Source of the DNA: Candidatus Aerophobota bacterium
GTDB taxonomy: Bacteria; Aerophobota; Aerophobia; Aerophobales; AE-B3A
NCBI GenBank assembly: GCA_030616535.1
Contig: JAUWXE010000003.1
Span: 1-36,856 of the forward strand
DNA length: 36,856 nucleotides
Direction: 5' to 3'
Positions 2,182 through 35,495 of this stretch are shown one piece after another. The position numbers were made by a program, and so were the translations under genes. How positions within the stretch are numbered: position 1 is the stretch's first letter; every line of letters begins with the position of its first letter. Below the pieces are notes generated by a model, which had not been told where the DNA came from, made no database searches, and was given only the letters and a program-made list of their open reading frames with translations.

Positions 2182-2211
2182 TCGACAAAAAATAAAAATA
2201 TGTTAACATAT
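2182..2211 (+). promoter_or_regulatory. Putative gntR promoter overlapped by a 14-bp palindromic operator
   Basis: TCGACA (2182-2187), 16-bp spacer, TAACAT (2204-2209) with an extended -10 TG. Perfect palindrome ATATGTTAACATAT (2198-2211) with a GT-TA-AC core like HutC-subfamily operators. Confidence 0.55.
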
Positions 2212-2274
2212 AAAATAGATTATGATATTATTCTTTCGTGGCGCAAGGATGTATATGAGAAAAAGGAGAGATCG

Positions 2275-3277: not shown

Positions 3278-3532
3278 ATGATGCATTTAGAGAGAAAAGA
3301 TAAGGTGGATATCTCTGACCAAATCGGAGCATGTACGGATTTTATGCCTAGGACCCGCAATGAAAGTATCTATGATGCTATTACCGCTGCGTATAGGGCA
3401 GAATTTGCAGGACTTGAGTTATTTCCTACAAAGGATCAGGCTGTCATGTTACATGAAAGTCTGTTGAGGAGATTAATTCTCCAAGCTAGGAGGTGCACAC
3501 AATGGGCTTCCAAATTCATGCAGGTGAGGTAA
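3278..3532 (+). pseudogene. Short ORF, possibly an N-terminal remnant of a xylose-isomerase-like TIM-barrel protein
   Basis: SIYDAITAAYRAEFAGLELFP resembles the 'EAI..A...GF.GVEL' start of AP-endonuclease-2-type barrels, but the ORF is only 84 aa. It is preceded by a 21-aa ORF (3216-3281) with a strong RBS and ATGA overlap. Confidence 0.3.
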
Positions 3533-5838: not shown

Positions 5839-5897
5839 TGAACAGGGAGGAAAAAAGAATTTTCGAGTGAACTAATAATGTGACTGAGGAGGTGATG

Positions 5898-7931
5898 ATG
5901 GTTAACAATGTACTAACTAATAGGAATGCAGGAAAGAGGATAGGGGATTTTTTCCGAGAGATGAACGTCGATAACCCGTTTTGCGAAGGACTGGCTGAAA
6001 CATTCGGTTTCGGGTTGGGATACGACAGGGTTAAACACGAAGAATGTTTCCAGGATCTCAAACTTCATGCTGTTTCAAACCGGGGATCTAAGCAGATTAC
6101 AGAACAGGTTTGGAGAAATAGTACAGAATGTCTGGAAATCAGAGTTGAATACGAGCTCTTTCCAGAGCACAATGCGTTGAAATATCAGGGACGCATTCAC
6201 AATATCGGTGATAAACCCATACCACGAGTAAAAGATCTACACACGGTGCAATGGGGCTTTCCTGTTTCTACTATTGGACCACCCACAATCCACGGAGCGG
6301 GCGGAGGGATGAAGGATAACTTTTACCCACCCCCCTCATATCGTAGGTTTGATACCACCTTAGTTGAGTCGCGTTATGGTGATGGATTGATCGTTGGCTC
6401 AAGGTTGGGGCGATCCTCCAATGCATACCTTCCTTTCTTCGTTGTGAGCAATGGTGCTGATTCGCACGGGATCTTTTTTGCCCTTGGTTGGTCAGGAAAC
6501 TGGAAGGCAAAATTCCAATTGCATGAGACCAACCAGAACTCGCAACAGTTTCTTATTAAGGCATGGTTACCCGCGGTTGATCTGATGCTCATGTCTGGGG
6601 AGGAAATACCAATCCCGGAGGTTTTAATAGGCTTATATGATGGATCTGCTCTTAATGGAATGAATGCACTGCGTCGAACCATTTACGAGAGGTATGTTCC
6701 CTTACTGGCGGGCAAGAAAGTTGTTCCTTTAACTGGATTTGGTAGCTGGTTCGCTTACAATGGTATAGTTGGTGCTCCCAGAATTAATGAGCACAGCCTA
6801 AAAAAACAGGTAGATACGGCCGCAGAGATAGGCTGCGAGTACTTTGAGGTTGACGACGGTTGGGAGGTTGGCTGGCAGGAGGGTCTAGGATTCAATGAGC
6901 GAAGAATGGATTGGGTAGCCGATGAGGCGAAATTCCCTTTCGGTCTTGATAAATTTGCAAAGTATGTTGAAGACAAAGGGATGAAGTTTGGTCTCTGGCT
7001 TGATCTTGCTCGAACCACTCGACGATCCAATTTGCTCCAGGAACATCCTGAATGGGTGATCTGGTCAGAAAAGGATCCAGATAGAGGCCTTGTTAACTTC
7101 GGTCTGTCACAGGTTCGTGAGTGGGCAAAAGGTATTTTTAGTGAACTGGTTGAAAAGTACCATATGCAGTGGGTAAGAAACGATTACAACGTGGATCCCG
7201 AGTTCCAATGGACCAAATATGATCCTCCAGAGCGTAAGGGCATAACAGAGATCAGACACATAGAAGGTCTCTATGAGGTTATGGAGTGGGTTCTGAAGAA
7301 TTATCCCTCGTTGTGCGTTGAGCAGTGTGCAAGCGGAGGACGGATGATAGATTTGGGGACTCTCCGCCGAGCACATATGGTTTTTGTCAGTGATCACACA
7401 ATCAGCGCGGATATCTGTCGGTATCATCTCTCAGGGGCTAGCTGTTTCTTGCCATCCATACTGCTCCATACTGATCTTTCTCACCATACTGAGGCGTACC
7501 CCGATGTGTTCTACCTGAGCCGCTTCGGTGGTGCTTTAGGCATTGGTGATGACATTGCAAGATGGTCTCCGGTTTTGCAAGAGAAGGCTAAAAAGATGAT
7601 AGGTATATATAAATTGATCCGACATTTTCTTGCAGGTGATTTCTATCCGGTGTTCTCCCAACCTGTTTCGATAAGGGAATGGGATGGTTGGCAGTTCCAC
7701 GATCCCTCTTCTGATTCAGGCATAGTAGTAGTGTTTAGGGTGCAGAGCACACAGGCACAGAAACTGGTTAAGCTATCTGCACTCGATCGTCACAAGAGCT
7801 ATTCGTTGACTAACCTACTTATCAGTCAAGAAACGGTAGTTTCCGGCCAGACACTTCAGGACGAAGGTTTTGCAATTAGTCTTGAATGTGGTGAAGCGGA
7901 AATTTGGCGCTATCAGCCGTCCACGGGATGA
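5898..7931 (+). CDS. GH36 alpha-galactosidase-like glycoside hydrolase
   Basis: GRSS...LPFF, GWSGNW, EYFEVDDGW, KFPFGL, GMKFGLW, WVRNDYN (nucleophile Asp position), EQCASGG..IDLG, VSDHT (acid/base Asp position), GDFYP. RBS GAGGAGG precedes ATG 5895/5898 (ORF track gives 5880). Confidence 0.88.
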   Translation: MVNNVLTNRNAGKRIGDFFREMNVDNPFCEGLAETFGFGLGYDRVKHEECFQDLKLHAVSNRGSKQITEQVWRNSTECLEIRVEYELFPEHNALKYQGRIHNIGDKPIPRVKDLHTVQWGFPVSTIGPPTIHGAGGGMKDNFYPPPSYRRFDTTLVESRYGDGLIVGSRLGRSSNAYLPFFVVSNGADSHGIFFALGWSGNWKAKFQLHETNQNSQQFLIKAWLPAVDLMLMSGEEIPIPEVLIGLYDGSALNGMNALRRTIYERYVPLLAGKKVVPLTGFGSWFAYNGIVGAPRINEHSLKKQVDTAAEIGCEYFEVDDGWEVGWQEGLGFNERRMDWVADEAKFPFGLDKFAKYVEDKGMKFGLWLDLARTTRRSNLLQEHPEWVIWSEKDPDRGLVNFGLSQVREWAKGIFSELVEKYHMQWVRNDYNVDPEFQWTKYDPPERKGITEIRHIEGLYEVMEWVLKNYPSLCVEQCASGGRMIDLGTLRRAHMVFVSDHTISADICRYHLSGASCFLPSILLHTDLSHHTEAYPDVFYLSRFGGALGIGDDIARWSPVLQEKAKKMIGIYKLIRHFLAGDFYPVFSQPVSIREWDGWQFHDPSSDSGIVVVFRVQSTQAQKLVKLSALDRHKSYSLTNLLISQETVVSGQTLQDEGFAISLECGEAEIWRYQPSTG

Positions 7932-8242: not shown

Positions 8243-9520
8243 ATGTTGCATAAGTCTATTGGTGTCCAAGCAATAGGGATATTCATAATATCTCTGCTTA
8301 TTTGCTCCAGCGCAAGTGCTGTGAAAATTACCGTTTGGGATCAATACACCGCACCTGATATGTCACCTGCTGTGGACAAGTTGAATGCTCTTTTCGAAAA
8401 AGCAAATCCTGATATTCAAATTGAGAGAGTGGCGATGAGCGGAGAAGATATGAGGAAAGTTCTTAAGACCGCTTTGTTGGCAGGAGAAAAGCTGGATGTT
8501 GTTTACACTGAGGTTGGTCCGGGTCATATGGGTTTGCTTGCGCGAGCTGGTCTGTTGATTGATTTGACAGAGGTGTATGAGCGATATGGATGGACTGAAC
8601 GGGTGTATGAATTTCCAAGAACCATAGCGACATTTGATGGAAAAATTTGGGGAATTGGAAATGAATTAGAGTATTTAACAACCTACTACAACAAAGATGT
8701 ATTCCAGGAACTAGGACTTGAGATACCCAATAGTTATGAAGAATTGATCTGGATTTGTGAAAAGCTCAAATCTAAGGGATATATTCCATTTGGTTTCGCA
8801 AGTAAAGACTATTGGACTTCTGTGCATCCCTTTGCCGTTTTTGTAAACCTTCTGATTCCTAAAGATGAGTTGGATGAAATTCTCCTCGAAAAGGACAAAT
8901 GGGATCATCCTGGTTTGGCTCGAGCACTCGAGATATGGTCTATCGAGTTTCCGCAAAAGGGATACTTTTCAAAAGACTTTCAAGCCTTAGGTTACAACGA
9001 CGGAAATATGCTTTTTTATACTGAAAAAGCACCTATGCGTCTTACTGGAACATGGCTACTTGGAGATATCATGGAAAATGTGAAAACTTTCGAACCCAGT
9101 AGTTTCTTATTCCCCCAAATCAAAAAAGATATACCGGTTCGAGTCCCTATGGTGTGTGGTTCTGGCTACTGTGTTCCAAAAGCAACTCTGTATCCTGAAG
9201 AATGTTTCAAATATCTAGATTTCTTACTGTCCGACGAAGCTGGTAAAATATGGATAGAAGAAGCCAAACTTGTTCCACCTTTTCCTGTGAGCCTTGAAGG
9301 TCTTGAATTAGCTCCTTTACAAAAGGACGTAATACGGTCACTTTTCGAAATTGATGGTGGTCACTTTATTGATATTTACAGTACAGCAAGATGGTGGAAC
9401 GAACTCTGTTCCTTGATGCAGGGAATTTATGCTGGCAAAGAAACAGTAGACGGAACTATTAACAAGCTGAATAGGATATGGAAAGAAGAACGAGAAAAAG
9501 GACTTTTGAGATCTAGATAA
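8243..9520 (+). CDS. Sugar ABC transporter substrate-binding protein (CUT1)
   Basis: Signal peptide ending ASA, then ITVWD, FEKANPDIQIE, YYNKDVFQELGLEIPNSYEEL, TGTW. Strong RBS AAGGAGG. Confidence 0.92.
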   Translation: MLHKSIGVQAIGIFIISLLICSSASAVKITVWDQYTAPDMSPAVDKLNALFEKANPDIQIERVAMSGEDMRKVLKTALLAGEKLDVVYTEVGPGHMGLLARAGLLIDLTEVYERYGWTERVYEFPRTIATFDGKIWGIGNELEYLTTYYNKDVFQELGLEIPNSYEELIWICEKLKSKGYIPFGFASKDYWTSVHPFAVFVNLLIPKDELDEILLEKDKWDHPGLARALEIWSIEFPQKGYFSKDFQALGYNDGNMLFYTEKAPMRLTGTWLLGDIMENVKTFEPSSFLFPQIKKDIPVRVPMVCGSGYCVPKATLYPEECFKYLDFLLSDEAGKIWIEEAKLVPPFPVSLEGLELAPLQKDVIRSLFEIDGGHFIDIYSTARWWNELCSLMQGIYAGKETVDGTINKLNRIWKEEREKGLLRSR

Positions 9521-9653: not shown

Positions 9654-10532
9654 ATGAGGAGATTAAAATTACTGGCAAGGCAAAGTGGGATTTACTGTTT
9701 TATAATACCTGCCTTGGCTCTGTATGTAGTGTTTATTTTTTATCCTATGATTCATACATTATTGCTAAGTTTTCACGAGTGGAATGGTGCCACAATAACA
9801 AAGAAATACGTGGGTTTTGCTAACTACGTAAAGCTTATCTACGATGATATATTTTTAATTTCCTTAATGCACAACGTAATTTGGTTAATGTTAAGTCTTG
9901 CTCTACCAGTTAGCCTTGGTTTGCTATTAGCATTGTTGTTGAGCGAGAAAACAAAAGGGAGGGAGCTTTTGACAATTATTTACTATCTTCCCGCTATGAT
10001 TTCTCTTGTTGCTGTAGGGATAATATGGAGCCTAATTTATCACCCACAGTGTGGCATTTTGAATGGAGTACTTAGATTGATTGGACTAGATTTTCTTACT
10101 CGTCCGTGGCTCGGTCAAACCCCTTGGGTTTTGCTAGCCCTGATAGCTGCTGGAGCATGGACCTACTTTGGATTCTGTACTCTACTTTTCCTTGCTGGAT
10201 TACAAAATATTGATCCTCAGTTGTACGATGCGGCTAAAGTCGATGGAGCTGGTAGATTACAGCAATTCTTGCACATTACAGTCCCTCTACTGAGGAACGT
10301 AACTACATTAGTTGTTATATGGACTACTATAGGTTCATTTAAAGTCTTTGACATTGTGTGGGCGATGACTCGGGGAGGTCCGCATCACTCCACAGAAGTC
10401 GTTACCAGTTGGTTATATAAGCAAGCATTTGAAGCATCACGAGTAGGCTATGGAGCTGCTATATCAATATGCTTACTTGCCATTATTCTCATTTTAACAC
10501 TTGCATATTTATCTTATGCTGAGAGGGAGTAA
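9654..10532 (+). CDS. Carbohydrate ABC transporter permease (MalF/UgpA-like)
   Basis: YVGFANY, hydrophobic helices, EAA-loop LYDAAKVDGA, MTRGGP, GYGAAIS. Confidence 0.93.
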   Translation: MRRLKLLARQSGIYCFIIPALALYVVFIFYPMIHTLLLSFHEWNGATITKKYVGFANYVKLIYDDIFLISLMHNVIWLMLSLALPVSLGLLLALLLSEKTKGRELLTIIYYLPAMISLVAVGIIWSLIYHPQCGILNGVLRLIGLDFLTRPWLGQTPWVLLALIAAGAWTYFGFCTLLFLAGLQNIDPQLYDAAKVDGAGRLQQFLHITVPLLRNVTTLVVIWTTIGSFKVFDIVWAMTRGGPHHSTEVVTSWLYKQAFEASRVGYGAAISICLLAIILILTLAYLSYAERE

Positions 10533-10533
10533 A

Positions 10534-11382
10534 TTGAAAAATAAGCTATCTTACAAGTCATCAGAAAAGCTAGTAGCTGTGGCTAAATACGGTTTTTTAG
10601 CGTTCGTCACCTTGTTGGCACTGGCTCCCGTCGTTTGGGTTTGGATCGGTGCATTCAAGAGTCATCTTCAAATATATTTAAACCCATTTGGATTTCCAGA
10701 GACTTTTAATTATAGGAACCTCATAAACGCTTGGACAATAGGAAGATTTTCAGTGTATTTTAAAAATAGTGTAATCATGACACTAGCAACGGTGGTTATA
10801 GTCGTATTATTATCTTCCTTGGCAGGATTTGCTTTTGGCATGTTTAATTTTCGGGGAAATAAACCAATCTTTTATTTTATGCTAATTGGCCTCCTGATGC
10901 CTCCACAAGCATTTATTATCGGTCTTTATTACCTACTGAAAGATATTGGTCTTCTTAATACATACTGGGCCTTTATTCTTCCTAGTGCTGGTGCAAATGT
11001 GTGTTTTGGAACATTTATGATGCGAGCTTATTTTAAGAGTTTACCTAGAGAGCTACTAGATTCAGCATATCTGGACGGATGTTCAAAGCTTCAATCATTT
11101 ATTTACATAATGGCTCCGTTAGCGAAACCAGCAATGATAGCTCTTTTTATCTTCCAAACTGTATGGAATTGGAAAGATTTTTTTCTTGCCTTTATGCTTA
11201 TCCACAAGGAGTCGTTGAGGCCAATTACTGTGGGCCTGATCTTCTTTAAAGGGCGATATACATCAGACTTTGGTTTGATATTATCAGGAGTCACCATCGC
11301 TACTTTTCCTTTAATAGTTGTCTATTTGGTCATGCATAAACGCTTTGTTAAAGGGGTAATCGAAGGAGCTCTTAAAGGCTAA
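10534..11382 (+). CDS. Carbohydrate ABC transporter permease (MalG/UgpE-like)
   Basis: YFKNS, LPRELLDSAYLDGCS, C-terminal FVKGVIEGALKG. TTG start after GAGGGAG (ORF track gives 10501). Confidence 0.93.
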   Translation: MKNKLSYKSSEKLVAVAKYGFLAFVTLLALAPVVWVWIGAFKSHLQIYLNPFGFPETFNYRNLINAWTIGRFSVYFKNSVIMTLATVVIVVLLSSLAGFAFGMFNFRGNKPIFYFMLIGLLMPPQAFIIGLYYLLKDIGLLNTYWAFILPSAGANVCFGTFMMRAYFKSLPRELLDSAYLDGCSKLQSFIYIMAPLAKPAMIALFIFQTVWNWKDFFLAFMLIHKESLRPITVGLIFFKGRYTSDFGLILSGVTIATFPLIVVYLVMHKRFVKGVIEGALKG

Positions 11383-11596: not shown

Positions 11597-13150
11597 GTGT
11601 ACTTTCTGGGATTAGATGTGGGAACTTCTGTGGTCAAAGGTGCAATTTTTACCGAGAAAGGTCAGCCGGTAGCGTTAAACCGATTAGAATACCAATTAAA
11701 TTACCCTCATCCAGGATGGATTGAAATTGATCCCGATCTTGTTTGGGATAAAGTTAAAAAGCTGATTTCAGAGTTAGTCGGGAGCAGCAATGTTAAACCT
11801 GCGGAAATTGTAAGTATTTGTCCTTCTGTTCTGGGAGAAGCTATTGTTCCCATAAACAAGAAGGGAAAACCTCTCTATAACTTCATAGAAGGATGGGATG
11901 GAAGGGGAAACTACTACGAAGAAGAAATATCGTTTCTGGAAGAAAAGATTGGGAGATATAAAATCTACGACATATCTGGCGTTACTTTATCTTCACTGGC
12001 TTCTATCCATAAAATACTCTGGTTAATAAAGCATAAACCAGAAATCTACGAGAAAACTTTCAAATTTCTTTTTATGGAAGACTTCATTATTGCTAAACTG
12101 ATCGGTGAATATTTTGTAAACTATTCTTTGGCTTGCCGTTCTATGCTTTTTGACAGGGTAGAGAAAAAATGGTCGGAAGAAATTCTTGGGGAAGCCGCTC
12201 TTAGTCCAGACCTTTTTTCATTACCTGTACCCTCAGGAACAATAGTTGGATCAGTGGCGGAGTTTGTTGCCAGCGAGCTTGGATTGAGCGAGAAAACCAA
12301 AGTGGTCACAGGAGGCCATGATCAATGTTGTGCTGCTTTAGGAGTAGGGATAATTTCAGAAGGTCCGGCTTTTAACGGGATGGGGACGGTGGAGGTAATA
12401 GCTGGAGTTACCGAAAGGCCGAGATTAGAGCATCACCTTTCAGATAGTAATATCGCCAATTATTGTCATGTATTAAAAGATAAGTATCTTCTTTTGGGCG
12501 TCAACCCGACTTTTGGCATGGCGTTGAAATGGTTTAAGGATGTATTTGTAAAAGGAAGAAATTCTATTGAGAACAGAGAGGGTAGAGGCATTTACGAGAT
12601 TATCATCGAGGAAGCCGAACAATCTTCACCGGGAGCTAAGGGTTTATTCTTTCTTCCTCATCTTCAGGGAACTTTTTCTGGAAGTTTTCAAGCTCTCAAC
12701 CCAAACTCTAGAGCTGCCTTCATAGGTCTTAGGTCCTTTCATAAGATTGGTGATATGGTGAGGGCTATCCTGGAAGGTGTATGTTTTGAAACTAGAAATC
12801 TCATAATTGAGATGGAGAAAGTCTTAGAAATTACCGATTTGAGAGTGTCTGGTGGACCTACTAATTCAGATTTATGGATGAAGATTAAGGCCGATATTTC
12901 TCAAAAGAAGCTGTTGGTTCCCGAAAAAAGTGAGGCTGGATTGATAGGAACACTAATTTTATCCACTATAGCTACCGGTGTTTATAAGGATACCGAAGAG
13001 GCTATATTGAGTATTTTTAAAGTGAAAAGATCTATAACACCAGAAGAAAAAATTGGGGTATTTTACACTTCTCGGTTTAATATCTTCAAAAAAATATATC
13101 CAACTTTATTTGAAATCTACGAACAGATGGGTTCTCTGAATAATCGATAA
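11597..13150 (+). CDS. FGGY-family carbohydrate kinase (xylulokinase-like)
   Basis: LGLDVGTS, PHPGWIEIDP, GGHDQ, GTVE, FLPHLQG, RAILEGV, VSGG. RBS AGGAGG precedes the GTG start. Confidence 0.92.
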   Translation: MYFLGLDVGTSVVKGAIFTEKGQPVALNRLEYQLNYPHPGWIEIDPDLVWDKVKKLISELVGSSNVKPAEIVSICPSVLGEAIVPINKKGKPLYNFIEGWDGRGNYYEEEISFLEEKIGRYKIYDISGVTLSSLASIHKILWLIKHKPEIYEKTFKFLFMEDFIIAKLIGEYFVNYSLACRSMLFDRVEKKWSEEILGEAALSPDLFSLPVPSGTIVGSVAEFVASELGLSEKTKVVTGGHDQCCAALGVGIISEGPAFNGMGTVEVIAGVTERPRLEHHLSDSNIANYCHVLKDKYLLLGVNPTFGMALKWFKDVFVKGRNSIENREGRGIYEIIIEEAEQSSPGAKGLFFLPHLQGTFSGSFQALNPNSRAAFIGLRSFHKIGDMVRAILEGVCFETRNLIIEMEKVLEITDLRVSGGPTNSDLWMKIKADISQKKLLVPEKSEAGLIGTLILSTIATGVYKDTEEAILSIFKVKRSITPEEKIGVFYTSRFNIFKKIYPTLFEIYEQMGSLNNR

Positions 13151-13228
13151 GGAGAAAATGAGATATATCTCATTATTAACCAAAAATACATGTTCCCATT
13201 GGGGACATTGCAAAGGATGGAGAAAAAA

Positions 13229-14587
13229 ATGGAAGCAACATATGATCCTTTAGTTTTCAACAGTGAGTATGAAAGTGTCCATAAAGAAAAGTTTATTATC
13301 GCTACATATTATGTGGAACACAAAGCGGAAGGTGAGATTTTGGACCATTTGAATGTTATCCAGCCTATGCTGCTACAGGGTTCTACCGGGACCTGGCAAA
13401 AAATTCCTGAAGATACTGCAAAAATAAGAGAACTTTTTACCCCTAAGGTCATCGGATATTATCCTGTTCCCACCGAAAGCGAAAACCATAAGAAGGCGAT
13501 TGTAAATATGGCCTTACATACAGAATCTTTCTCTCACAATTTTCCCATGTTGTTGATAGCTATAGCCGGAAATATTCTTTTCTTTCCTGGAGTAATTAAA
13601 TTGGTGGGTATTCATTTTCCTAAAAGCTTTTGCCAGGAGTTCACCGGACCCAAATTTGGTATCTCTGGCATCCGAAAACTCTTAGGAGTTCCTGAAAGAC
13701 CCTTCGTATTAACCATCATTAAACCCAAAATGGGCATGACACCGCAAGAAACTGCAGAACAGGCATACAAAGCTGCAATCGGGGGATCGGATATGGTTAA
13801 AGATGATGAGATGTGTAGCGAGACCTTTAACTGTTCCTTTAAAGATCGAGTCAGGATGGTTAGCCAGGCATTGAAAAGAGCTTATGAGGAGAACGGGCAA
13901 AAGACTCTCTACTTTGTGAGTATCACTGACAGACCCAGTAAGATGAAGCACAAAGCCAAACTAGCTATAGAAATGGGGGCTGGCGGCCTTCTGGTGGGCT
14001 TTACCGCTGGTTACTCTGTCATTCGAGATCTAGCTAAGGATTCGGATATTAACGTACCCATACTTATGCATCCTACCAGTGTAGCTTCCCAGACTTCAGT
14101 CTTTAGATTCCCTGTTATCTGTAAGCTAGCACGATTGGCCGGTGCTGACTTAGTGCTCAATGCTACCCGCTGGGCTACTTTGCCCTTTGTATCTTTAGAG
14201 GATGGCGTAAGAGCTAATCAAATCCTGCAGGCTCCTATGTATCATATTAATCCATCTCTTTCTGCTCCCAGTGGAGGAATGCACCCTGGTCTGGTTCCTG
14301 AATTAGTGAAAGAATGTGGTCCCGATATTTTTATTCCTGCAGGAGGAGGTATTCACGGTCATCCTAAAGGTACAACCGCTGGAGCAAAAGCTATGCGACA
14401 GGCTATTGAGGCTACTATGAGAGAAATATCACTGGAAGAAGCCTCTAAGGCTCCGGATAACCGAGAGCTGAAAGATGCAGTGGAGAAATTTGGAATCTTT
14501 CATCGTCCCACCACTAGATGGTTTAGAACAGTTTCAGAGTGGGAGAATAAAACTTCTATATTGACAGGTTACGATTACAGTAAGTAA
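13229..14587 (+). CDS. RuBisCO-like protein (form IV RLP)
   Basis: STGTW, AGN, GPKFGISGIR, IIKPKMG, KDDE (carbamylated Lys and Mg ligands), SGG and GGGIHGHP are present. Equivalents of R295, H327 and K334 are missing. ATG 13229 follows GGAG (ORF track gives 13190). Confidence 0.93.
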   Translation: MEATYDPLVFNSEYESVHKEKFIIATYYVEHKAEGEILDHLNVIQPMLLQGSTGTWQKIPEDTAKIRELFTPKVIGYYPVPTESENHKKAIVNMALHTESFSHNFPMLLIAIAGNILFFPGVIKLVGIHFPKSFCQEFTGPKFGISGIRKLLGVPERPFVLTIIKPKMGMTPQETAEQAYKAAIGGSDMVKDDEMCSETFNCSFKDRVRMVSQALKRAYEENGQKTLYFVSITDRPSKMKHKAKLAIEMGAGGLLVGFTAGYSVIRDLAKDSDINVPILMHPTSVASQTSVFRFPVICKLARLAGADLVLNATRWATLPFVSLEDGVRANQILQAPMYHINPSLSAPSGGMHPGLVPELVKECGPDIFIPAGGGIHGHPKGTTAGAKAMRQAIEATMREISLEEASKAPDNRELKDAVEKFGIFHRPTTRWFRTVSEWENKTSILTGYDYSK

Positions 14588-14619: not shown

Positions 14620-15603
14620 ATGAGAAAAATTAAGTTCTCGGCTGGTTTAGCAGCATTTGGAAATGGAATCGACCGCTATGTAAACTTGGGATACAAAGAA
14701 AGTGTAACTGTTGAAAAAATGATTGAATTGGCTGGTGCTGTAGAAGACCTGGAGGGTGTTGAACTTGTAGAAAACTGGCATGTTAATAAAAATAATTTAA
14801 ATGCGATCAAAGAATGTTTAGAAAAATATAGGTTTAAAGTATCAATGGTCATTCCAGATCTTTGGGCAACTAAGAAATGGGCTATGGGAAGTCTAAGTGC
14901 AAAGGATGCAAAAACAAGGGAGGAGGCTAAGGAAACTATTATTAATGCTATAGAAATGGCTAAGAGGATTGATTGTGATTTAATCGATGTTTGGTTTGGC
15001 CAGGACGGATGGGATTACTCCTTTGAGGTTGACTATCTCCAATCCTGGCAATTTTTAGTAGAGGGATTGAGGGAAGTTGCTGATTATGACGCCGGTATAA
15101 GAATTGGGATAGAGCATAAAATTAAAGAGCCGCGATGCTTTGCTCATGTAGGCTCCATTGGGAAACTTATGCTCCTTATCAAAGAAGTAGAAAGACCCAA
15201 TATAGGAGTAGTATGTGATTTTGGCCACTGTTTTGAGGGTTATGAGAATCTGGGACAGGTACTGGCTCTAATGAAACATTATGGGGTAAAACTGTTTCAT
15301 ACTCACTTCAATGATAACTATCGTCTATGGGATGACGATCTGATTTCTTGTTCTGTACATACCATTGAATACATTGAAGCTTTCTATTGGTTACAAAAGG
15401 TAGATTACCAGGGTTGGTACTCCCTTGATATTTTCCCCTTCCGTATTGATAGCATCAAAGCTGCTACGGAAAGCATAAAATGGATAAAAGCTCTGGCAGG
15501 AGTGGTAGATAAAGTTGGAGTTGATAAGATTGATGAGGTCATCAAAGATGGCGATGCCTGTGATGCTCAGAAGCTCATTCGAGAGGCAATATTTGGCTTT
15601 TAG
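14620..15603 (+). CDS. Xylose/L-rhamnose-isomerase-like sugar isomerase (TIM barrel)
   Basis: WFGQDG, EHKIKEPR, DFGH, HFNDN..WDDD and SLDIFP match the two-metal ligand pattern of aldose-ketose isomerases. Confidence 0.85.
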   Translation: MRKIKFSAGLAAFGNGIDRYVNLGYKESVTVEKMIELAGAVEDLEGVELVENWHVNKNNLNAIKECLEKYRFKVSMVIPDLWATKKWAMGSLSAKDAKTREEAKETIINAIEMAKRIDCDLIDVWFGQDGWDYSFEVDYLQSWQFLVEGLREVADYDAGIRIGIEHKIKEPRCFAHVGSIGKLMLLIKEVERPNIGVVCDFGHCFEGYENLGQVLALMKHYGVKLFHTHFNDNYRLWDDDLISCSVHTIEYIEAFYWLQKVDYQGWYSLDIFPFRIDSIKAATESIKWIKALAGVVDKVGVDKIDEVIKDGDACDAQKLIREAIFGF

Positions 15604-15674: not shown

Positions 15675-16640
15675 ATGGAAAAAAGGCTACCAAGAGAGAA
15701 ATTGATTGAAATGTATAGGAAAATGTTAAGGATTAGACACTTTGAAGATAGAATTTACCGACTCTTCTTAAGCGGGACTATGCCAGGGACTATTCATCTT
15801 TCCCAGGGACAGGAGGCAATAGCAGTAGGAGTATGTGCCAATCTCAGTAAGGATGACATAATTACCGGCACCCATCGATCTCATGGTGAAGCTCTGGCTA
15901 AAGGTGTTTCTATGAAATCATTGATGGCCGAACTCTTTGCTCGGTCTAACGGTTGTTGCAAGGGGAAAGGCGGCTCGATGCATGTGGGTGATATTGATGT
16001 AGGAATGCTTCCGGCTATAGCTATAGTGGGAGGAGGAATTCCTGTGGCTACCGGTATAGCACTGGCCTTTAAGATGAAAAGATTAGATCGGGTAGCCGTT
16101 TCCTTCTTCGGAGACGGAGCTTCCAATGAAGGTGCTTTCCATGAGGCGATCAATATGGGAGCTATTTGGGATCTACCCGTCATCTATGTTTGTGAGAACA
16201 ACCTCTATGGAGCCTCTACTCATGTTAGCAAGGTAATGAAGTTAAAAGATATCGCTAATCGAGCTTTCTCTTACGGGATACCGGGGGTGGTGGTGGACGG
16301 CAATGATGTAGTGGCGGTATATGAGGTAGCAAGGAAGGCTATAGATAGAGCAAGGAAAGGTGAGGGTCCAACGTTAATTGAGTGCAAGACCTACCACATA
16401 GGAGGTCATTCTCGTTCTGATCCCAGGCAATATAGAGATAAGGAAGAAGAAAAGAGGTGGCTGGCCAAGGATCCCATCCCCAGAATGAAAAAGAAATTGA
16501 TTGCGACGAATATTTTGAGCTCAGAAAAATCAGAGAATATAGAGGCCGCAATTGAAAAAGAAATAGACGAGGCTATAAAATTTGCCCAGAGTAGTCCCTC
16601 GCCGAAACCAGAAGATGCTCTAAGGGATGTATTTGCTTAA
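15675..16640 (+). CDS. TPP-dependent dehydrogenase E1 alpha subunit (AcoA/PdhA-like)
   Basis: HLSQGQEA, THRSHG, GKGGSMH, TPP motif GDGASNEG...ENN, GHSRSDP. Confidence 0.93.
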   Translation: MEKRLPREKLIEMYRKMLRIRHFEDRIYRLFLSGTMPGTIHLSQGQEAIAVGVCANLSKDDIITGTHRSHGEALAKGVSMKSLMAELFARSNGCCKGKGGSMHVGDIDVGMLPAIAIVGGGIPVATGIALAFKMKRLDRVAVSFFGDGASNEGAFHEAINMGAIWDLPVIYVCENNLYGASTHVSKVMKLKDIANRAFSYGIPGVVVDGNDVVAVYEVARKAIDRARKGEGPTLIECKTYHIGGHSRSDPRQYRDKEEEKRWLAKDPIPRMKKKLIATNILSSEKSENIEAAIEKEIDEAIKFAQSSPSPKPEDALRDVFA

Positions 16641-16656
16641 AGTTAAGGAGAATAAA

Positions 16657-17670
16657 TTGAGAAATTTAACTGTAGCGGAAGCTTTAAGAGAAGCGATAAG
16701 AGAAGAGATGAGGAGGGACGAGTCAGTCTTTTGTATTGGAGAGGATATAGGTATCAAAGGAGGCTGGGGAGGGGCTTTTACCGTTACTCTTGGGTTGTCG
16801 GAAGAATTTGGACACGAAAGGATTCTAGATACCCCCATCTCGGAGCTTGGTATAGCTGGTATAGCTGTAGGGGCAGCTCTTGCTGGAATGAGACCCATAG
16901 CCGATGTAGAATACGGAGATTTTATCTTCTTGGCCATGGATCAGCTCATAAATAATGCAGCTAAACTCCGATATATGTCAGCCGGCAAGTTAAAGGTTCC
17001 TATGGTTATGCGAATTCCCGTAGGAGCTTCAGGCAGAGGAGCCCAACATGCTCAATCCCTAGAGTCTTATTTTGTTCATGTTCCTGGACTCAAAGTTGTC
17101 TGTCCTTCTAATGCCTATGATGCCAAAGGACTTCTAAAAACAGCTATAAGGGACGATAATCCCGTAATGTTCTTTGAACACAAGCTTCTATACGGCGCTA
17201 AAGGAAGAAGGGAAGGTATAGATGCTCGAGGAGAAGTACCGGAAGAAGAGTATTTACTTCCTTTCGGAGTAGCTGAGATAAAAAGAGAGGGAGAGGATGT
17301 AACAGTAGTGGCCACCTTAAGAATGGTTTACGCAGCGTTATCGGCCGCTGAGGAACTGGAAAAAAGGGGGATAAGCGTGGAAGTGATAGATCCTCGAACT
17401 CTCACTCCTTTGGATTTAGAAACGATTTTAAAATCTGTTCATAAAACAAATAGGTTGATTATTGTTCATGAGGATAATTTAACTGGGGGATGGGGAGCAG
17501 AGTTAGCCACTCGGGTAACTAGTGAAGCTTTTGACTGGCTAGATGTTCCTGTAACGCGGATTGCTGCCCCAGATACCCCTGTTCCCTTTGCTCCCATAAT
17601 GGAAAATTATTTTGTCCCGAACAGTGAAGATATAGTTAGAACTGCAGCGAGTGTATTGGGTAAAAGTTAA
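16657..17670 (+). CDS. TPP-dependent dehydrogenase E1 beta subunit (AcoB/PdhB-like)
   Basis: GEDIG, DTPISE, DQLINNAAK, AQHAQS, FFEHK, IDPRTL.PLD. TTG start after AAGGAG (ORF track gives 16627). Confidence 0.93.
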   Translation: MRNLTVAEALREAIREEMRRDESVFCIGEDIGIKGGWGGAFTVTLGLSEEFGHERILDTPISELGIAGIAVGAALAGMRPIADVEYGDFIFLAMDQLINNAAKLRYMSAGKLKVPMVMRIPVGASGRGAQHAQSLESYFVHVPGLKVVCPSNAYDAKGLLKTAIRDDNPVMFFEHKLLYGAKGRREGIDARGEVPEEEYLLPFGVAEIKREGEDVTVVATLRMVYAALSAAEELEKRGISVEVIDPRTLTPLDLETILKSVHKTNRLIIVHEDNLTGGWGAELATRVTSEAFDWLDVPVTRIAAPDTPVPFAPIMENYFVPNSEDIVRTAASVLGKS

Positions 17671-17701
17671 AGATCACAATATAAAATTAAGGAATTGCAA
17701 A

Positions 17702-18610
17702 ATGGCACTTATCCCAATGAAAAAAATGTTAGTGAAGGCCCAAAAGGAAAGATACGCAGTAGGGTACTTTGAGTCTTGGAATTTGGAGTCTCTGCAGGCA
17801 ATTATTAATGCAGCAGAAGAGGTGTGCTCATCAGTAATCGTTGGATTCAGCGGTAGATTCTTAGCCGAGCCGGGCAGGTTAATGCCCGAAAAAATCGAAT
17901 ATTACGCTTCCATGGGAAAGGTGTTCGGTGAAAACACCTCGGTCCCAACAGCCTTAATTTTGAATGAAGCGTCTGATTTTGCATGGATCGAAAAGGCCAT
18001 AGAACTTGGCTTTACCGCTGTAATGTTTGAGGATGAATCATTGTCTGCCGTAAAAGAGGTGAATTTTATTAAAAAGGCAGTTAAAATAGCTCATTCAAAA
18101 GGTGTTTCTGTAGAAGCTCAATTGGGAATTTTGCCAGTAGCAGAAAAAAGAGGAGTCACCGAGGAGATAGCAAAAGATATTTCTTTAACCGATCCCGAAA
18201 AAGCTGCTCAATTTGTAAAAGAAACTGGTATTGATGCCCTGTCGATTTCTGTCGGCAATATTCACTCTTTAACCAAAGGTAAGGCGGAAATTGATTTTGA
18301 TAGGCTTAAACACATTAGAGAAGTGGTAGATATACCCTTAGTTTTACATGGAGGAACAGGACTTGCAGATGATACCGCGAGAAGAGCAATCAAATTAGGA
18401 ATATGTAAAATCAATATTGGAGCTTTACTTAAACAGACTTTCATTAAGGGGATAAAAAAGAAGCTTGGTACTTACTTTAACGGCTATTCAGACCCCCATG
18501 AATTTTTAGGATCAGGCAAAGAAAGGGATATATTAATGGCTGGTGCGCTAGAGATGAGGGATGTAATTAAAGAAAAAATGAAAGTTTACGGCTCATCTGG
18601 CAGAGCATAA
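17702..18610 (+). CDS. Class II fructose/tagatose-bisphosphate aldolase family protein with an atypical active site
   Basis: YAVGYF, GVSVEAQLG, TDPEKA..FV.ETGIDAL..SVGNIH, PLVLHGGTG, KINI. The canonical HLDH is replaced by ILNE. ORF track gives start 17651. Confidence 0.85.
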   Translation: MALIPMKKMLVKAQKERYAVGYFESWNLESLQAIINAAEEVCSSVIVGFSGRFLAEPGRLMPEKIEYYASMGKVFGENTSVPTALILNEASDFAWIEKAIELGFTAVMFEDESLSAVKEVNFIKKAVKIAHSKGVSVEAQLGILPVAEKRGVTEEIAKDISLTDPEKAAQFVKETGIDALSISVGNIHSLTKGKAEIDFDRLKHIREVVDIPLVLHGGTGLADDTARRAIKLGICKINIGALLKQTFIKGIKKKLGTYFNGYSDPHEFLGSGKERDILMAGALEMRDVIKEKMKVYGSSGRA

Positions 18611-19457: not shown

Positions 19458-20534
19458 TTACGGAACTACTAGACCTTTAATAGCATTGTCCTTGCGCTCT
19501 TTAATGGTTTTCAATGCTGTCAGAACATCATCTAGAGAAAATCTGTGGGTAATCAAAGAGCTAACATCAACAAGTTTCTTATCGATAGCCTGAAGAGCGG
19601 TGGGCCAGGTAAAAGGTGCCAGCCAGGAGAATCGGATGGTCTTATCCCATAAAAGTGAGTCAAGAGCGGGAACTTTGAGAGTATCATTCGGGCCGGGAAG
19701 GCCAAAGTAAACTACGACAGCCTTTCTTCCAGAAATAGTGAGGGCATCCTGCATTGGCTTTAAAGCCCCGGTGGCACAGATAACTCTATCAGCCATCCTT
19801 CCTTCAGTTAGCTCCTTAATTCTTTCTTTTAAATCATCAATGCAATAGGGGGATTTTTTTTCTTTGGTATTTAAAATGAAATCTGCTCCCAGCTTCTTTC
19901 CCAGTTTGAGTCGATAGTCCCTCGTGCCAACCAGCACTACAGTTCCAGCTCCTCTTGATTTGGCCATTTGAGTCATCATCAGCCCTATGGGGCCGGGACC
20001 AAAGATAACGCAGAAATCACCCAGAGAAATGTCGAGATTCTCAATCCCATAGGTGGCGCAGGATAAAGGCTCGGTAAAGGCTGCCTGCTCAAAGCTAACC
20101 CTTGAGGGAAGTTTATGGACCCCGGTATATTTAGATTTAACATATTCGGCAAAGGCACCATGGGTGGAGACCCCAATCACACTTTTATTTTCACAGAGAT
20201 TAACCATTCCTCTGGCACAAACTCCGCAGGCGCTGCAGTACTGAACCGGGTCCACCGTAACTCGATCCCCAGCCTCGAATAATCCTTTCTCCTTAGGAAT
20301 TCTCCCCACCTCGACCACCTCTCCAGAAAATTCGTGGCCTAAAATTAACGGACCCTTACCGGTGAGTGTTTCCAGAGGACTTAACCCCCAATAGTAAGCA
20401 ATATCCGATCCACAGATACCACAGGCTTTGACCTTGACCAGAACTTCATCTTCTAAAGGAGAGGGAATAGGAACCTCTTCCAATCTCATCTTTTCTGGCT
20501 CATAAAAAACCTGCGCTTTCATCATTTTAGCCAT
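19458..20534 (-). CDS. Zn-dependent polyol/sugar dehydrogenase (MDR family)
   Basis: CGICGSD, GHEFSG, CSACGVC..C, EPLSC, GPGPIG, LITHRF. Full length. Confidence 0.92.
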   Translation of the reverse strand: MAKMMKAQVFYEPEKMRLEEVPIPSPLEDEVLVKVKACGICGSDIAYYWGLSPLETLTGKGPLILGHEFSGEVVEVGRIPKEKGLFEAGDRVTVDPVQYCSACGVCARGMVNLCENKSVIGVSTHGAFAEYVKSKYTGVHKLPSRVSFEQAAFTEPLSCATYGIENLDISLGDFCVIFGPGPIGLMMTQMAKSRGAGTVVLVGTRDYRLKLGKKLGADFILNTKEKKSPYCIDDLKERIKELTEGRMADRVICATGALKPMQDALTISGRKAVVVYFGLPGPNDTLKVPALDSLLWDKTIRFSWLAPFTWPTALQAIDKKLVDVSSLITHRFSLDDVLTALKTIKERKDNAIKGLVVP

Positions 20535-20555: not shown

Positions 20556-21470
20556 TTATTTCCATTTAAGTTTTGTAAAAAGGTTATCCAGGTGTCTTTT
20601 GCAGTCAGCAGTAATCTCCCAGGCGTTTGGCCAAAAGCAAAGATCAATAGACCACCACCCGGAATTATAGCCAGCCTCAACCAGAGTTGGCAGAAGGGCC
20701 TCAAAGTTCAGCACTCCTTTACCAAAAGGTACATGGGCACTGGTCTCATTGTCGTGAAGGGTATTGTCTGAGTCAATTAAGTGGACATGCCCGATTTTAC
20801 CCTTTAATAGACGGGCAAACTCAATTTCACCACCGGGAAGCTTGTCTAATGGAGGTGTCTGTTTAGCTGCAACTGCCGAGCACATATGAGCATGACAGCT
20901 ATCAAAGAGAAACTTAAAATTTGGCCGATCAACTTCATTGAGCAGTCTCATGACCTCATGGGGTTTATTGAAGATAAACCCCGGTTCAAATTCCCAGACC
21001 ACCAGTGTATCTACCTCGGCAGCCTTATCGGCACAGCTTCTGAACATGTTGACTACTCTATCCCAGGTAGTCTGGTAGTCAAGATGTTCCGGGAAAGGAG
21101 TGTGGGTGACGGTATCTACCCGAATAGCTTTGATCCCACAATCCACACAAAACTCCAGGCTTCGATCAAACATTTCCTGGTACTGTTTGACCACCTTGGG
21201 ATCGCCCTCGGCAAAGGGAAGCGACCAAAGATCAGCGGCGTAGGCAGAAACTTCCAGTCCCTTTGATTCTAACATCTCCATTAGTTGGCCTCTGCTCTTT
21301 TTGTTGGGATATAGATCAGGATGAGCATGGGGTTTGAATCCGCCTAATTCAACTCCATCAAATTTAAGAGCCTCCAGCCGCTTAGCCACCTCTTCCAGTT
21401 CTACTGGATGATCAGCATAGGGACCGATAGCATAAGCCCAGCTACCAATGGAGATTTTTGGAAAGATCAT
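20556..21470 (-). CDS. Sugar-phosphate isomerase/epimerase (xylose-isomerase-like TIM barrel)
   Basis: FDGVELG, WEFEPG, FDSCH, HVHLIDSD, HVPFGKG, GY..WWSID. RBS AAGGAGG. Confidence 0.85.
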   Translation of the reverse strand: MIFPKISIGSWAYAIGPYADHPVELEEVAKRLEALKFDGVELGGFKPHAHPDLYPNKKSRGQLMEMLESKGLEVSAYAADLWSLPFAEGDPKVVKQYQEMFDRSLEFCVDCGIKAIRVDTVTHTPFPEHLDYQTTWDRVVNMFRSCADKAAEVDTLVVWEFEPGFIFNKPHEVMRLLNEVDRPNFKFLFDSCHAHMCSAVAAKQTPPLDKLPGGEIEFARLLKGKIGHVHLIDSDNTLHDNETSAHVPFGKGVLNFEALLPTLVEAGYNSGWWSIDLCFWPNAWEITADCKRHLDNLFTKLKWK

Positions 21471-21560: not shown

Positions 21561-21751
21561 TTTTCGTATTTCGTATAAGGAAGTCAAACTTTATCCACAA
21601 TTACTGAACAAATTATGATTAAAGGATGAATTTATTTGTTTTGCAGAAGATGACCAAAAAAGCATGTATCCGCCACCCAAAGTTGTCTTTGATCTAGTTA
21701 GCTTCTGGCCCAAAAGTATTAAAAAAATGGGAAAAAAGGGTGGGCGGAGAA

Positions 21752-21780
21752 TTGACTTTCCTCCTTCTATACGCTATGAT
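21752..21780 (+). promoter_or_regulatory. Sigma70-type promoter for thiE-tsaE-tsaB-rimI
   Basis: TTGACT, 17-bp spacer, TATGAT. This supports a thiE start at 21814 rather than 21664. Confidence 0.7.
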
Positions 21781-21813
21781 TTTGATTGTAAAGGTTATGC
21801 ACTGGAGCTTCTT

Positions 21814-22866
21814 GTGAATAAGCAGAGAGAAATTTATCGAATAATGGATGTCAATCTTGATCGAGCAAGTGAAGGCTTGAGAGTAATAGAAGACGCAGTT
21901 CGATTTGGCTTGAACGATTATCATCTTACCCAAAAGGTGCGGCAGCTGCGTCACTTTTTAATAAAAATAGCGGAGGAGATTCCTCACTTTAGATGGAGGC
22001 AGCGCATGAGCTGCCGGGATGTGGAAAAAGACGTAGGAGCAGGACTGGGGACAGAAGAAAAAAGAGAAGGGTTTGAGAATCTAGTGAAAGCTAACTTTGG
22101 AAGAGTCCAAGAGGCTGAAAGGAGTCTAGAGGAGTTTGTTAAGCTGCTTTCTTCAGAATTAGGGCAAAGATTTAAGAAGCTTCGTTTCCAAACCTATGCC
22201 CTAGAAAAAAAAGTAGCTATGAGACTAGAAAAAAGATATGATTTCAGCCTCTATGTGATCACTGACTCTAGCCTGATCAAAGAGGAACAGTTCAAAGAAA
22301 AATTAAAAGATGTGGTATCAAACGGAGCCACTGTCATTCAGTTAAGAGAAAAGACCCTATCTTTATCGGCCTTTTTCAAAAAAGCCCTTTTAGTCCGAAA
22401 AATAATTCCGGAGGATGTCCTTTTTATGGTAAACGATAGGGTAGATATCGCTATGGCCTCAGGGGCAGATGGAGTGCATCTAGGACAGGAGGATCTGCCC
22501 ATCTCGGCTGCCCGCAAGGTCTTAGGAGAGAGTAAAATCATTGGTGCATCTACCCACTCCGTGGAGCAAGCCCAGCAGGCAGAAAGAGAAGGTGCCGATT
22601 ACATAGCTATAGGACCGGTTTTTTCCACCGCTACTAAACCCCATGTCGGATCTGCTAAGGGGATAGGAATAATAGGTAAAACGAAAGAAAAAGTGCATAT
22701 TCCCGTAATAGCAATAGGGGGGATAAACTTGGACAATGTGGAGAAAACTTTAAAGGCAGGAGCAGACGGGGTGGCCGTTATAAGTGCTGTATTTAAGGAG
22801 GCTAACACTGGTCTAGCTACCAGAAGACTTTCCGAAAAGATCAGGGCCATAAAAAAGGAAAAATAA
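21814..22866 (+). CDS. thiE: Thiamine-phosphate synthase with an N-terminal ThiD2-like domain
   Basis: N-terminal RIMD.NLDRASEGLRVIED...AN..R.QEA.RSLEE; C-terminal LYVITD, QLREK, VNDRVD, GVHLGQED, GPVFSTATK, AIGGI. Confidence 0.92.
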   Translation: MNKQREIYRIMDVNLDRASEGLRVIEDAVRFGLNDYHLTQKVRQLRHFLIKIAEEIPHFRWRQRMSCRDVEKDVGAGLGTEEKREGFENLVKANFGRVQEAERSLEEFVKLLSSELGQRFKKLRFQTYALEKKVAMRLEKRYDFSLYVITDSSLIKEEQFKEKLKDVVSNGATVIQLREKTLSLSAFFKKALLVRKIIPEDVLFMVNDRVDIAMASGADGVHLGQEDLPISAARKVLGESKIIGASTHSVEQAQQAEREGADYIAIGPVFSTATKPHVGSAKGIGIIGKTKEKVHIPVIAIGGINLDNVEKTLKAGADGVAVISAVFKEANTGLATRRLSEKIRAIKKEK

Positions 22867-35472: not shown

Positions 35473-35495
35473 CTTCCTTCCTTATATCTTCTAGT

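Follow-up and report, generated by a model that had tools for sequence, protein, structure and literature searches.

A RuBisCO-like protein of Candidatus Aerophobota belongs to an uncharacterised clade encoded with a sugar kinase and acetoin-dehydrogenase-like E1 subunits

The window analysed here, a stretch of 36,856 nucleotides from a Candidatus Aerophobota bacterium (positions 1 to 36,856 of contig JAUWXE010000003.1, assembly GCA_030616535.1), encodes an intact RuBisCO-like protein (RLP, form IV) of 452 amino acids, whose reading frame is free of stops. The gene lies in a same-strand run that extends from a GntR/UTRA regulator through a truncated Zn-dehydrogenase; an FGGY-family sugar kinase precedes it, and a TIM-barrel isomerase and the alpha and beta subunits of a thiamine pyrophosphate (TPP)-dependent E1 enzyme follow. 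RLPs as such are known; what is new here is an uncharacterised clade of them, set apart by its residue signature and by a conserved gene cassette. The ATG at position 13229 is a likelier start than the ATG at 13190, where the ORF finder begins the open reading frame (ORF; 465 residues), because a GGAG motif lies 8 nt upstream and all clade homologues begin there (MExxYDP). This agrees with an initial annotation of the same DNA, which had given the RLP the coordinates 13229..14587. The genome of the organism comprises 1.08 Mb in 121 contigs, is 81% complete and contains one RuBisCO-family gene.

The RLP matched the Pfam families RuBisCO_large (PF00016) with 152.5 bits (E 2e-44; cut-off 30.1) and RuBisCO_large_N (PF02788) with 23.2 bits (cut-off 20.7). 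With both domains above their gathering scores and a two-domain fold, it is a member of the RuBisCO large-subunit superfamily. An AlphaFold2 model of the monomer, computed with 22 clade sequences as input, had a mean predicted local distance difference test (pLDDT) score of 81.1, with values below 50 at residues 429-452 and in the loop 51-57. The best fold match in a Foldseek search was Geobacillus kaustophilus MtnW (2oem; TM 0.80/0.88), and further top matches were the Chlorobium tepidum RLP and Bacillus subtilis MtnW. By sequence, the best solved structure was MtnW 2zvi (222 bits). All curated models (NCBIfam, judged by their own cut-offs) scored the query below cut-off. As a large-subunit homologue that lacks the residues needed for carboxylation, the protein falls into form IV.

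We aligned the query (MAFFT, alignment A1) with 14 clade members, 7 RLPs from outside the clade and the form I large subunit of Nitrobacter, and checked the residues column by column in 120 homologues. Spinach numbers were placed on the form I motifs of this alignment. The query retains T65 (T55 in the query), W66 (W56), N123 (N115), K175 and K177 (K165 and K167 of the KPK motif K165-P166-K167), the carbamate lysine K201 and the Mg ligands D203 and E204 (K191, D193 and E194 of the KDDE motif K191-D192-D193-E194) and H294 (H281). Also retained is the glycine-rich phosphate site, S379-G380-G381 (S348-G349-G350) and G403-405 (G372-374). In contrast, E60 is changed to Q50, the loop 6 lysine K334 to T317, and R295, H298 and H327 of the distal phosphate site to P282, V285 and L310, respectively. 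K165, K167, K191, D193, E194, H281 and N115 are invariant in all 120 homologues, and the K334 column is S, T, A or G in every one of them; the distal basic residues R295, H298 and H327 give way to P/A/G/V, M/V and L. In A1, K177 is kept by the form I sequence and this clade only (0 of the 7 other RLPs). The residue pattern shows an enolisation set predicted to be competent, a carboxylation set predicted to be incompetent, and a single glycine-rich phosphate site.

Every item of the by-eye residue map in the initial annotation was reproduced in this alignment. The loss of the CO2-addition lysine and of the distal (P5) site was confirmed, as neither the alignment nor the 120 homologues offered equivalents of K334, R295 or H327. 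The accompanying claim that the enolisation core and the P1 phosphate site are intact holds for the carbamate lysine, the Mg ligands, K175, K177, H294 and the glycine-rich site. It is only partly true for P1, because K334, which in RuBisCO also contacts the P1 phosphate, is lost. In RuBisCO, E60 is the partner of K334.

Judged by these residues, the RLP almost certainly cannot fix CO2: the loop 6 lysine and all three distal basic residues are replaced. The idea of a true but unusual carboxylase, with the loop 6 arginine R314 (three residues before the K334 column) replacing K334, could appeal to this arginine and to an unusually complete RuBisCO-like first shell (K177, N123, T65, W66). However, the K334, R295, H298 and H327 columns are all non-basic, E60 is Q, and R314 is found in only 2 of the 120 homologues, the query and its 89% identical relative, the clade having mostly Y at this position. 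The form III RuBisCO model TIGR03326 scored 235.6 (cut-off 497.45), and NF003252 and NF010002 scored 226.7 and 122.7 (cut-offs 438 and 489). No AMP phosphorylase (TIGR03327) or phosphoribulokinase (PRK)-family (PF00485) match for the supply of ribulose 1,5-bisphosphate (RuBP) exceeded its cut-off in the 81%-complete genome. We therefore give the carboxylase reading almost no weight, in line with the initial annotation, which had predicted that carboxylation is lost. Form III RuBisCO, the archaeal enzyme of the AMP pathway, is nonetheless the second-best family (6hun, 8dht and 2cwx at 186-193 bits) and has K175-P-K177, N123, T65 and W66 in common with the query; the differences lie in K334, R295, H298 and H327, the sub-threshold scores and the RuBP-supplying enzymes, of which none exceeded its cut-off in the incomplete genome. 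MtnW/YkrW (B. subtilis 2zvi, G. kaustophilus 2oek/2oem), the 2,3-diketo-5-methylthiopentyl-1-phosphate enolase of methionine salvage, is nearest by hidden Markov model score (best curated model NF007095, 294 bits), pairwise sequence and fold, and is the sister group in the tree described below. MtnW and the query both lack K334, R295 and H327, keep K175, K201, D203, E204 and H294, and would both be expected to enolise a keto compound with a single phosphate. MtnW is also the name that the Joint Genome Institute (JGI) gives to many clade members. That the query is itself MtnW is highly improbable, however. Both MtnW models missed their cut-offs (NF007095, 294 against 409; TIGR03332, 253.5 against 513.6), and identity to MtnW is ~33-40%. 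In a pairwise alignment N115 of the query stands opposite K98 of G. kaustophilus MtnW, which we take to be the catalytic base; this column is Asn in 120/120 clade homologues and Lys in the Priestia MtnW of A1. Conversely, the clade keeps K177, T65 and mostly E60, which Priestia MtnW lacks, and carries an extra conserved C-terminal tail. Its genes lie in a context of sugar kinase, isomerase and E1 alpha/beta, whereas MtnW lies among methionine salvage genes. No mtnX, mtnB or mtnD neighbours were found in the window; in the 81%-complete genome MtnB stayed below cut-off (58.3 against 137) and acireductone dioxygenase (ARD) had no match, MtnX having not been searched genome-wide. Two IF-2B/MtnA-like genes are present in the genome. 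Thus, residues and gene context contradict the MtnW label on this clade, which would amount to a widespread misannotation.

Two further groups of characterised RLPs bear on the function of the query. The Rhodospirillum rubrum RLP, a 5-methylthio-D-ribulose-1-phosphate 1,3-isomerase, is a model for the chemistry proposed below; its product passes to a cupin, not to a TPP enzyme. It is reported to convert 5-methylthio-D-ribulose 1-phosphate to 1-methylthio-D-xylulose 5-phosphate, a carbonyl shift by which a ketose 1-phosphate becomes a 5-phosphate (PMC6302742). Its structure (3qfw) was absent among the best 60 of 99 PDB matches of the query, suggesting that it is more distant than MtnW or form III. 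OiaC and OiaX, reported to be RLPs of D-apiose catabolism (PMC6302742, PMC6389311), are encoded in a sugar catabolic operon beside a kinase. The query resembles them in lying inside such an operon next to a kinase. It differs in occupying another branch of the tree, in its score against NF042437 (139 against a cut-off of 700), in lacking R295, which OiaC/OiaX keep (A1), and in its partner, an FGGY kinase instead of a four-carbon acid-sugar kinase.

A search of a large protein collection returned one close relative (P0002, 89% identity) and otherwise nothing above 51%, while relatives at 42-51% identity were numerous. A metagenome scan likewise gave nothing closer to the query than 51%, and the ESM Atlas returned generic RuBisCO-family clusters only. 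Two peptide patterns of the clade, searched in species-representative genomes, yielded 210 confirmed loci, of which 80 were kept. All 80 are in metagenome-assembled genomes (MAGs), from Anaerolineae, Omnitrophota, Acidobacteriota/Terriglobia, Spirochaetota, Armatimonadota and Planctomycetota as well as from Aerophobetes, Atribacteria, Actinomycetota, Clostridia and Bathyarchaeia.

Maximum-likelihood analysis of 39 rows (LG+C20+F+G4) recovered the sampled part of the clade, 30 members in all, as one group with support 97/92, in which the query and P0002 were sister to the remaining 28. The clade and the MtnW reference together formed one group (100/98), in agreement with a quick tree. Outside it lay OiaX/NonPhoto-like RLPs, a Thiodictyon RLP, two archaeal RLP-like proteins, form I, and an archaeal protein that, with 294.6 bits to PF00016, we regard as a genuine RuBisCO. 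A Vibrio RLP, which had a very long branch and was unplaced in the quick tree, was left out. The sister relation to MtnW is provisional, because the references comprised a single MtnW and no R. rubrum-type, AMC or GOS sequence. Judged from these searches and the tree, the query stands on a rare branch that has diverged further than the rest of a large, uncharacterised clade. Note that the MAG b3.sp2_bin.56 (loci L002 and L009) encodes two clade RLPs, 49% and 47% identical to the query and one of them located right after E1b, and an EF-G-family protein 85% identical to that of the window; no copy of the query sub-branch was among the loci found there. The EF-G-family proteins of Aerophobetes MAGs share 59-66% identity with that of the window, in keeping with a probable relationship of the organism to Candidatus Aerophobetes.

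The divergence of the query extends to its active site. The E60Q change is lineage-specific (E in 115 of the 120 homologues, Q in 5), position 284 is His in 115 of 120 and Ser in the query, and the query has S-G-x-x-H at 348-352, where the clade has [CA]-A-x-x-Y. The C-terminal tail of ~25 residues noted in the initial annotation is real; in A1 it continues for ~27 residues after MtnW has ended. Conservation is seen in its first half, with R426 and P427 present in 120/120 and W431 in 118/120 homologues; in its second half the clade has P-x-[FY]-H-P-K and the query SEWENK. Because it is conserved, the tail probably matters. The C-terminal strand of form I RuBisCO folds down over loop 6, and a role of the tail as a cap over the active site is a reasonable idea, on which the AlphaFold2 monomer is silent in that it does not place the tail.

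We next consider the genes that accompany the RLP in the clade. ORFs were clustered from 80 of the 210 confirmed loci and the window (81 loci); many of the related contigs are short, and E1a is undercounted where an ORF on the opposite strand was picked. A cassette emerged that consists of the RLP, an FGGY kinase, a TIM-barrel isomerase and E1 alpha/beta (E1a, E1b), often with a lipoyl E2 and a uroporphyrinogen decarboxylase (URO-D)-like protein. The RLP ORF was counted in 74 of the 81 loci, E1a in 45, E1b in 44, the isomerase in 40, the FGGY kinase in 37 and E2 in 30. Less frequent were RpiR regulators (29), URO-D-like proteins (22), GntR regulators (13), short-chain dehydrogenases/reductases (SDRs; 8), FucA-type aldolases (6), DeoR regulators (6), a 'cyclase' (5) and an apiosidase-like hydrolase (3). 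Restricting the set to the 26 loci flanked by 5 kb or more on each side gave 18 each for E1a, E1b and the isomerase, 15 for FGGY, 14 each for the URO-D-like protein and E2, and 13 for RpiR. The partners are nearly always on the RLP strand; for the FGGY kinase the median gap to the RLP is 268 bp, and both are on the same strand in 33/36 cases. Typical orders are RpiR-RLP-FGGY-isomerase-E1a-E1b, RLP-E2-E1a-E1b-UROD and GntR-isomerase-RLP-E1a-E1b-E2-FGGY. In 4 loci, URO-D/MtaA-like proteins are fused to corrinoid-binding domains (examples of the family: L031:4680-5783, L081:13877-15721).

The E1 and E2 proteins of the cassette are of the same family as those of acetoin dehydrogenase (AcoABCL) and pyruvate dehydrogenase. 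Unlike these, they are encoded in an operon with sugar kinase, isomerase and RLP, and E3 is not part of the cassette. In one Aerophobetes locus, identity to the window is 78% for E1a and 81% for E1b but only 51% for the RLP. Enterococcus plasmids carry a sigma54-regulator/lpdA/E1a/E1b/E2 operon, read by us from its gene order as aco-type, the E1a of which shares ~49% identity with that of the window. Outside the clade, plasmid pVNTG1 of Vibrio nigripulchritudo (L021 5854-10473) has the gene order E1a-E1b-RLP-FGGY, with genes for an SDR, a sugar ABC transporter and a SorC-type regulator alongside; the RLP of this plasmid (381 residues, 28% identity to the query) has Arg in the K334 column of A1. 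V. nigripulchritudo is a cultured carrier and a possible experimental handle on the RLP-E1 link. A plasmid of Natronococcus sp. CG52 (L027 1222-6110) encodes a class II aldolase, an FGGY kinase, two oxidoreductases and an OiaX/NonPhoto-type RLP, and by its gene content is an independent second case in which an RLP is encoded together with such a kinase and such an aldolase.

The features of the window are collected in Table 1. The best NCBIfam match of the FGGY kinase was XylB (268.8 bits, below the cut-off of 380.25), and its best curated and solved matches were xylulokinase, gluconokinase, glycerol kinase and autoinducer-2 (AI-2) kinase, all below cut-off. The best solved relative of the TIM-barrel isomerase was 3ktc, a 'xylose isomerase' (176.5 bits). 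E1 alpha scored 375.4 against TIGR03182 (cut-off 393.85), and E1 beta exceeded the cut-off of NF006667 (380.5 against 321). The class II aldolase remained below every NCBIfam equivalog cut-off and a search of the first 19 related loci at E 1e-10 gave no match that covered half or more of its length. The truncated Zn-alcohol dehydrogenase, last in the operon, appears to be the remnant of a gene. The ThiD2-ThiE fusion lies 3 kb from the TPP-dependent E1 genes, and thiamine genes also adjoin a sugar-linked E1ab-E2 set on a Rhizobium plasmid (L193); this proximity may be coincidental. Elsewhere, the genome (contigs C4, C54, C72 and C42) holds two E1ab pairs besides that of the window, three in all, and one E2-like gene. 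With at least five FGGY-like genes and over ten Zn-dehydrogenase paralogues, its investment in polyol and sugar modules is unusual.

Table 1. Coordinates and supporting matches of the features in the window
Feature	Position	Strand	Matches and remarks
GntR/UTRA transcriptional regulator, likely of the sugar cluster	2200..3006	+	Pfam GntR 68.7, UTRA 120 bits
DUF6259 protein	3493..5517	+	Pfam PF19773 38.9 bits; assigned to the unit by position and strand only
GH36/melibiase-family glycoside hydrolase	5880..7931	+	Melibiase 117.9, Glyco_hydro_36N 30.2 bits; not conserved in related loci
Sugar ABC transporter solute-binding protein	8243..9520	+	SBP_bac_8 89.4, SBP_bac_1 86.3 bits
ABC transporter permease 1	9654..10532	+	BPD_transp_1 61.6 bits
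ABC transporter permease 2	10501..11382	+	BPD_transp_1 65.9 bits
FGGY-family sugar kinase	11597..13150	+	FGGY_N 170.6, FGGY_C 87.8 bits
RuBisCO-like protein (RLP, form IV), 452 aa	13229..14587	+	Intact ORF
Codons of the clade-specific C-terminal tail, residues 426-452	14506..14584	+	Length relative to MtnW from A1
Xylose-isomerase-like TIM-barrel isomerase/epimerase	14620..15603	+	AP_endonuc_2 103.2 bits
TPP-dependent E1 alpha (pyruvate/acetoin dehydrogenase type)	15675..16640	+	Pfam E1_dh 300.4 bits
E1 beta	16627..17670	+	Transket_pyr 152.2, Transketolase_C 135.5 bits; 14-nt overlap with E1 alpha
Class II ketose-bisphosphate (FBA/tagatose-bisphosphate-type) aldolase	17651..18610	+	F_bP_aldolase 231.3 bits; 20-nt overlap with E1 beta
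Truncated Zn-alcohol dehydrogenase, GroES-like N-domain only, 208 aa	18637..19263	+	Pfam ADH_N only
Full-length Zn-alcohol dehydrogenase paralogue, both domains	19458..20534	-	Convergent with the truncated copy
Second TIM-barrel gene	20556..21470	-	
ThiD2-ThiE fusion (thiamine phosphate synthase)	21664..22866	+	NF002727 358.7 bits, over cut-off
ADP-forming acetyl-CoA synthetase-type protein	30421..32526	-	CoA_binding, Succ_CoA_lig, ATP-grasp_5; not linked to the operon
Two adjacent radical SAM proteins, one with a B12-binding domain	34126..36833	-	At the window end

From the family, the residue pattern, the clade position and the conserved cassette we infer a route together with its chemical steps, substrate, phosphate position and order of enzymes. 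In this proposal, to which we give an even chance, the RLP is a non-carboxylating, enolising isomerase acting on a monophosphorylated keto-sugar, and an acetoin-dehydrogenase-like complex cleaves its product. A sugar or polyol would be taken up and converted by the xylose-isomerase-like enzyme (in some loci by dehydrogenases) to a ketose, to which the FGGY kinase would add a single phosphate. The RLP would then remove the proton beside the carbonyl with the help of the Mg2+-bound carbamate and return it elsewhere, resulting in a carbonyl shift or an epimerisation, as in the R. rubrum RLP isomerase. The resulting acyloin phosphate would be split by the acetoin/pyruvate-dehydrogenase-type E1 alpha/beta into an acyl unit, released as acyl-CoA where a lipoyl E2 is present, and an aldehyde phosphate such as glyceraldehyde 3-phosphate. 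The ADP-forming acetyl-CoA synthetase-type protein would let acyl-CoA from this route yield ATP. The E1 alpha/beta (and E2) partner is the strongest clue to the product of the RLP. As E1a and E1b stand beside the RLP on the same strand in many phyla and also in the distant Vibrio lineage, a shared pathway is suggested. The outline of the initial annotation, namely no carboxylation, one phosphate and a link to the kinase, was right, so that it is partly supported; its specifics are unproven, and it overlooked the E1/E2 partner. Its proposal of a ketose 1-phosphate made by the adjacent FGGY kinase stands with regard to the kinase, which synteny links to the RLP (37/81 loci; 15/26 with complete flanks), but the C1 position is conjectural.

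Several observations weigh against the proposed route. Most of the nearest characterised relatives of the kinase phosphorylate the distal primary hydroxyl, not C1, and its product may be a 5- or 6-phosphate rather than a ketose 1-phosphate. No E2 adjoins the RLP and E1 genes in the window, and the sole E2-like gene of the genome, on another contig, is 32% identical to a cassette E2. E1ab is absent near the RLP in 8 of the 26 complete loci, some of which carry a FucA-type aldolase and SDRs instead (for example L065). E1ab might merely share its regulation with the RLP and otherwise be an ordinary dehydrogenase of pyruvate or acetoin, and the class II aldolase of the window could by itself cleave a ketose 1-phosphate, which would blur the roles of RLP and E1. 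The query departs from the clade consensus at the first-shell positions Q50, S284, R314, S348-G349 and H352 and may therefore not share the reaction of the remaining clade. Moreover, the function of every member of the clade is a prediction from sequence and gene context.

Part of this evidence would be accommodated if the RLP were a plain 3-epimerase or tautomerase of a ketose phosphate that feeds an aldolase, with E1ab (and E2) forming a separate, co-located acetoin or pyruvate dehydrogenase. RuBisCO itself is known to misprotonate the enediol at C3 as a side reaction, the class II aldolase of the window is translationally coupled to E1b, a FucA-type aldolase occurs in 6/81 loci, and besides the complete loci that lack E1ab there are the two further E1ab pairs elsewhere in the genome. 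The recurrence of E1a and E1b next to the RLP, on its strand, in many phyla and with the distant Vibrio RLP is hard to explain without a shared pathway, however, and we consider a plain epimerase unlikely. A phosphate-eliminating lyase would preserve the link to E1: the RLP would enolise a ketose 1-phosphate and expel the C1 phosphate to give a 1-deoxy-2,3-diulose (a methyl diketone), which E1 would then split, yielding an acetyl unit plus an aldonic acid. When carboxylation fails, RuBisCO is known to lose the P1 phosphate from the enediolate by beta-elimination as a side reaction, and the clade keeps the enolisation set without K334. E1a is close to pyruvate/acetoin E1, whose substrates bear a methyl ketone, and the kinase resembles AI-2 kinase (204 bits, below cut-off), whose substrate is such a diketone. 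On the other hand, ATP would be spent merely to lose the phosphate again, and we know of no RLP that has this as its main reaction; a lyase thus appears quite improbable. RpiR regulators usually sense sugar phosphates; their presence in 29/81 loci does not separate the isomerase and lyase models.

Two candidate substrates were rejected. D-apiose had been prompted by the apiosidase-like hydrolase and by the likeness of the isomerase to 3ktc, but the hydrolase is rare (3/81 loci), and by our own reasoning apulose has no C3 proton for a RuBisCO-type enolisation. Inositol catabolism was suggested by weak IolM/IolO/IolE-like matches in two minus-strand genes, which lie outside the conserved cassette.

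A more specific version of the isomerase route can be formulated, which we regard as rather unlikely in its particulars. Here the RLP would act on a deoxy- or methylthio-ketose 1-phosphate (5-deoxyribose, 5-methylthioribose and a 6-deoxyhexose are examples of the parent sugar) and shift its carbonyl to the opposite end, and the lipoyl complex would produce acyl-CoA and glyceraldehyde 3-phosphate. On chemical grounds, the same shift on a 5-deoxy or 6-deoxy ketose 1-phosphate would allow an acetoin-type E1 to generate acetyl- or lactyl-CoA and glyceraldehyde 3-phosphate. The URO-D/MtaA-like proteins, some with corrinoid-binding domains, would handle the methyl or methylthio group, and the window protein (Q50, R314, S348, H352) would represent a sub-branch retuned to a more polar or anionic substrate. 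If true, this would be a new catabolic route and a thioester-conserving alternative to aldolase routes that release toxic aldehydes.

A full-text literature search, which did not extend to the main RLP surveys, retrieved no paper that relates RLPs to acetoin, to an E1 component or to carbohydrate kinases, FGGY or other, and no account of a conversion of sugar phosphate to acyl-CoA of the kind proposed here. One paper describes an RLP from an actinobacterial genome with relatives in Spirochaetes, Planctomycetes, the Candidate Phyla Radiation (CPR) and Moorella thermoacetica and guesses at an epimerase role (PMC7325909). In passages of another, RLPs serve only as an outgroup (PMC13454268).

RLPs show the scope of the RuBisCO active site without CO2 fixation, and only a handful of their functions have been assigned. 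None of the other RLPs compared keeps as much of the carboxylase first shell as the clade described here (K177, N123, T65, W66 and mostly E60), whose members are common in uncultured lineages from soil and the subsurface and often carry the label of a methionine-salvage enzyme. Its linkage to TPP- and lipoyl-dependent E1-E2 components points to a conversion of sugar phosphate to acyl-CoA. If true, the superfamily would gain a new reaction and fermenters a new means of conserving energy from sugars, and a widespread annotation error would be corrected.

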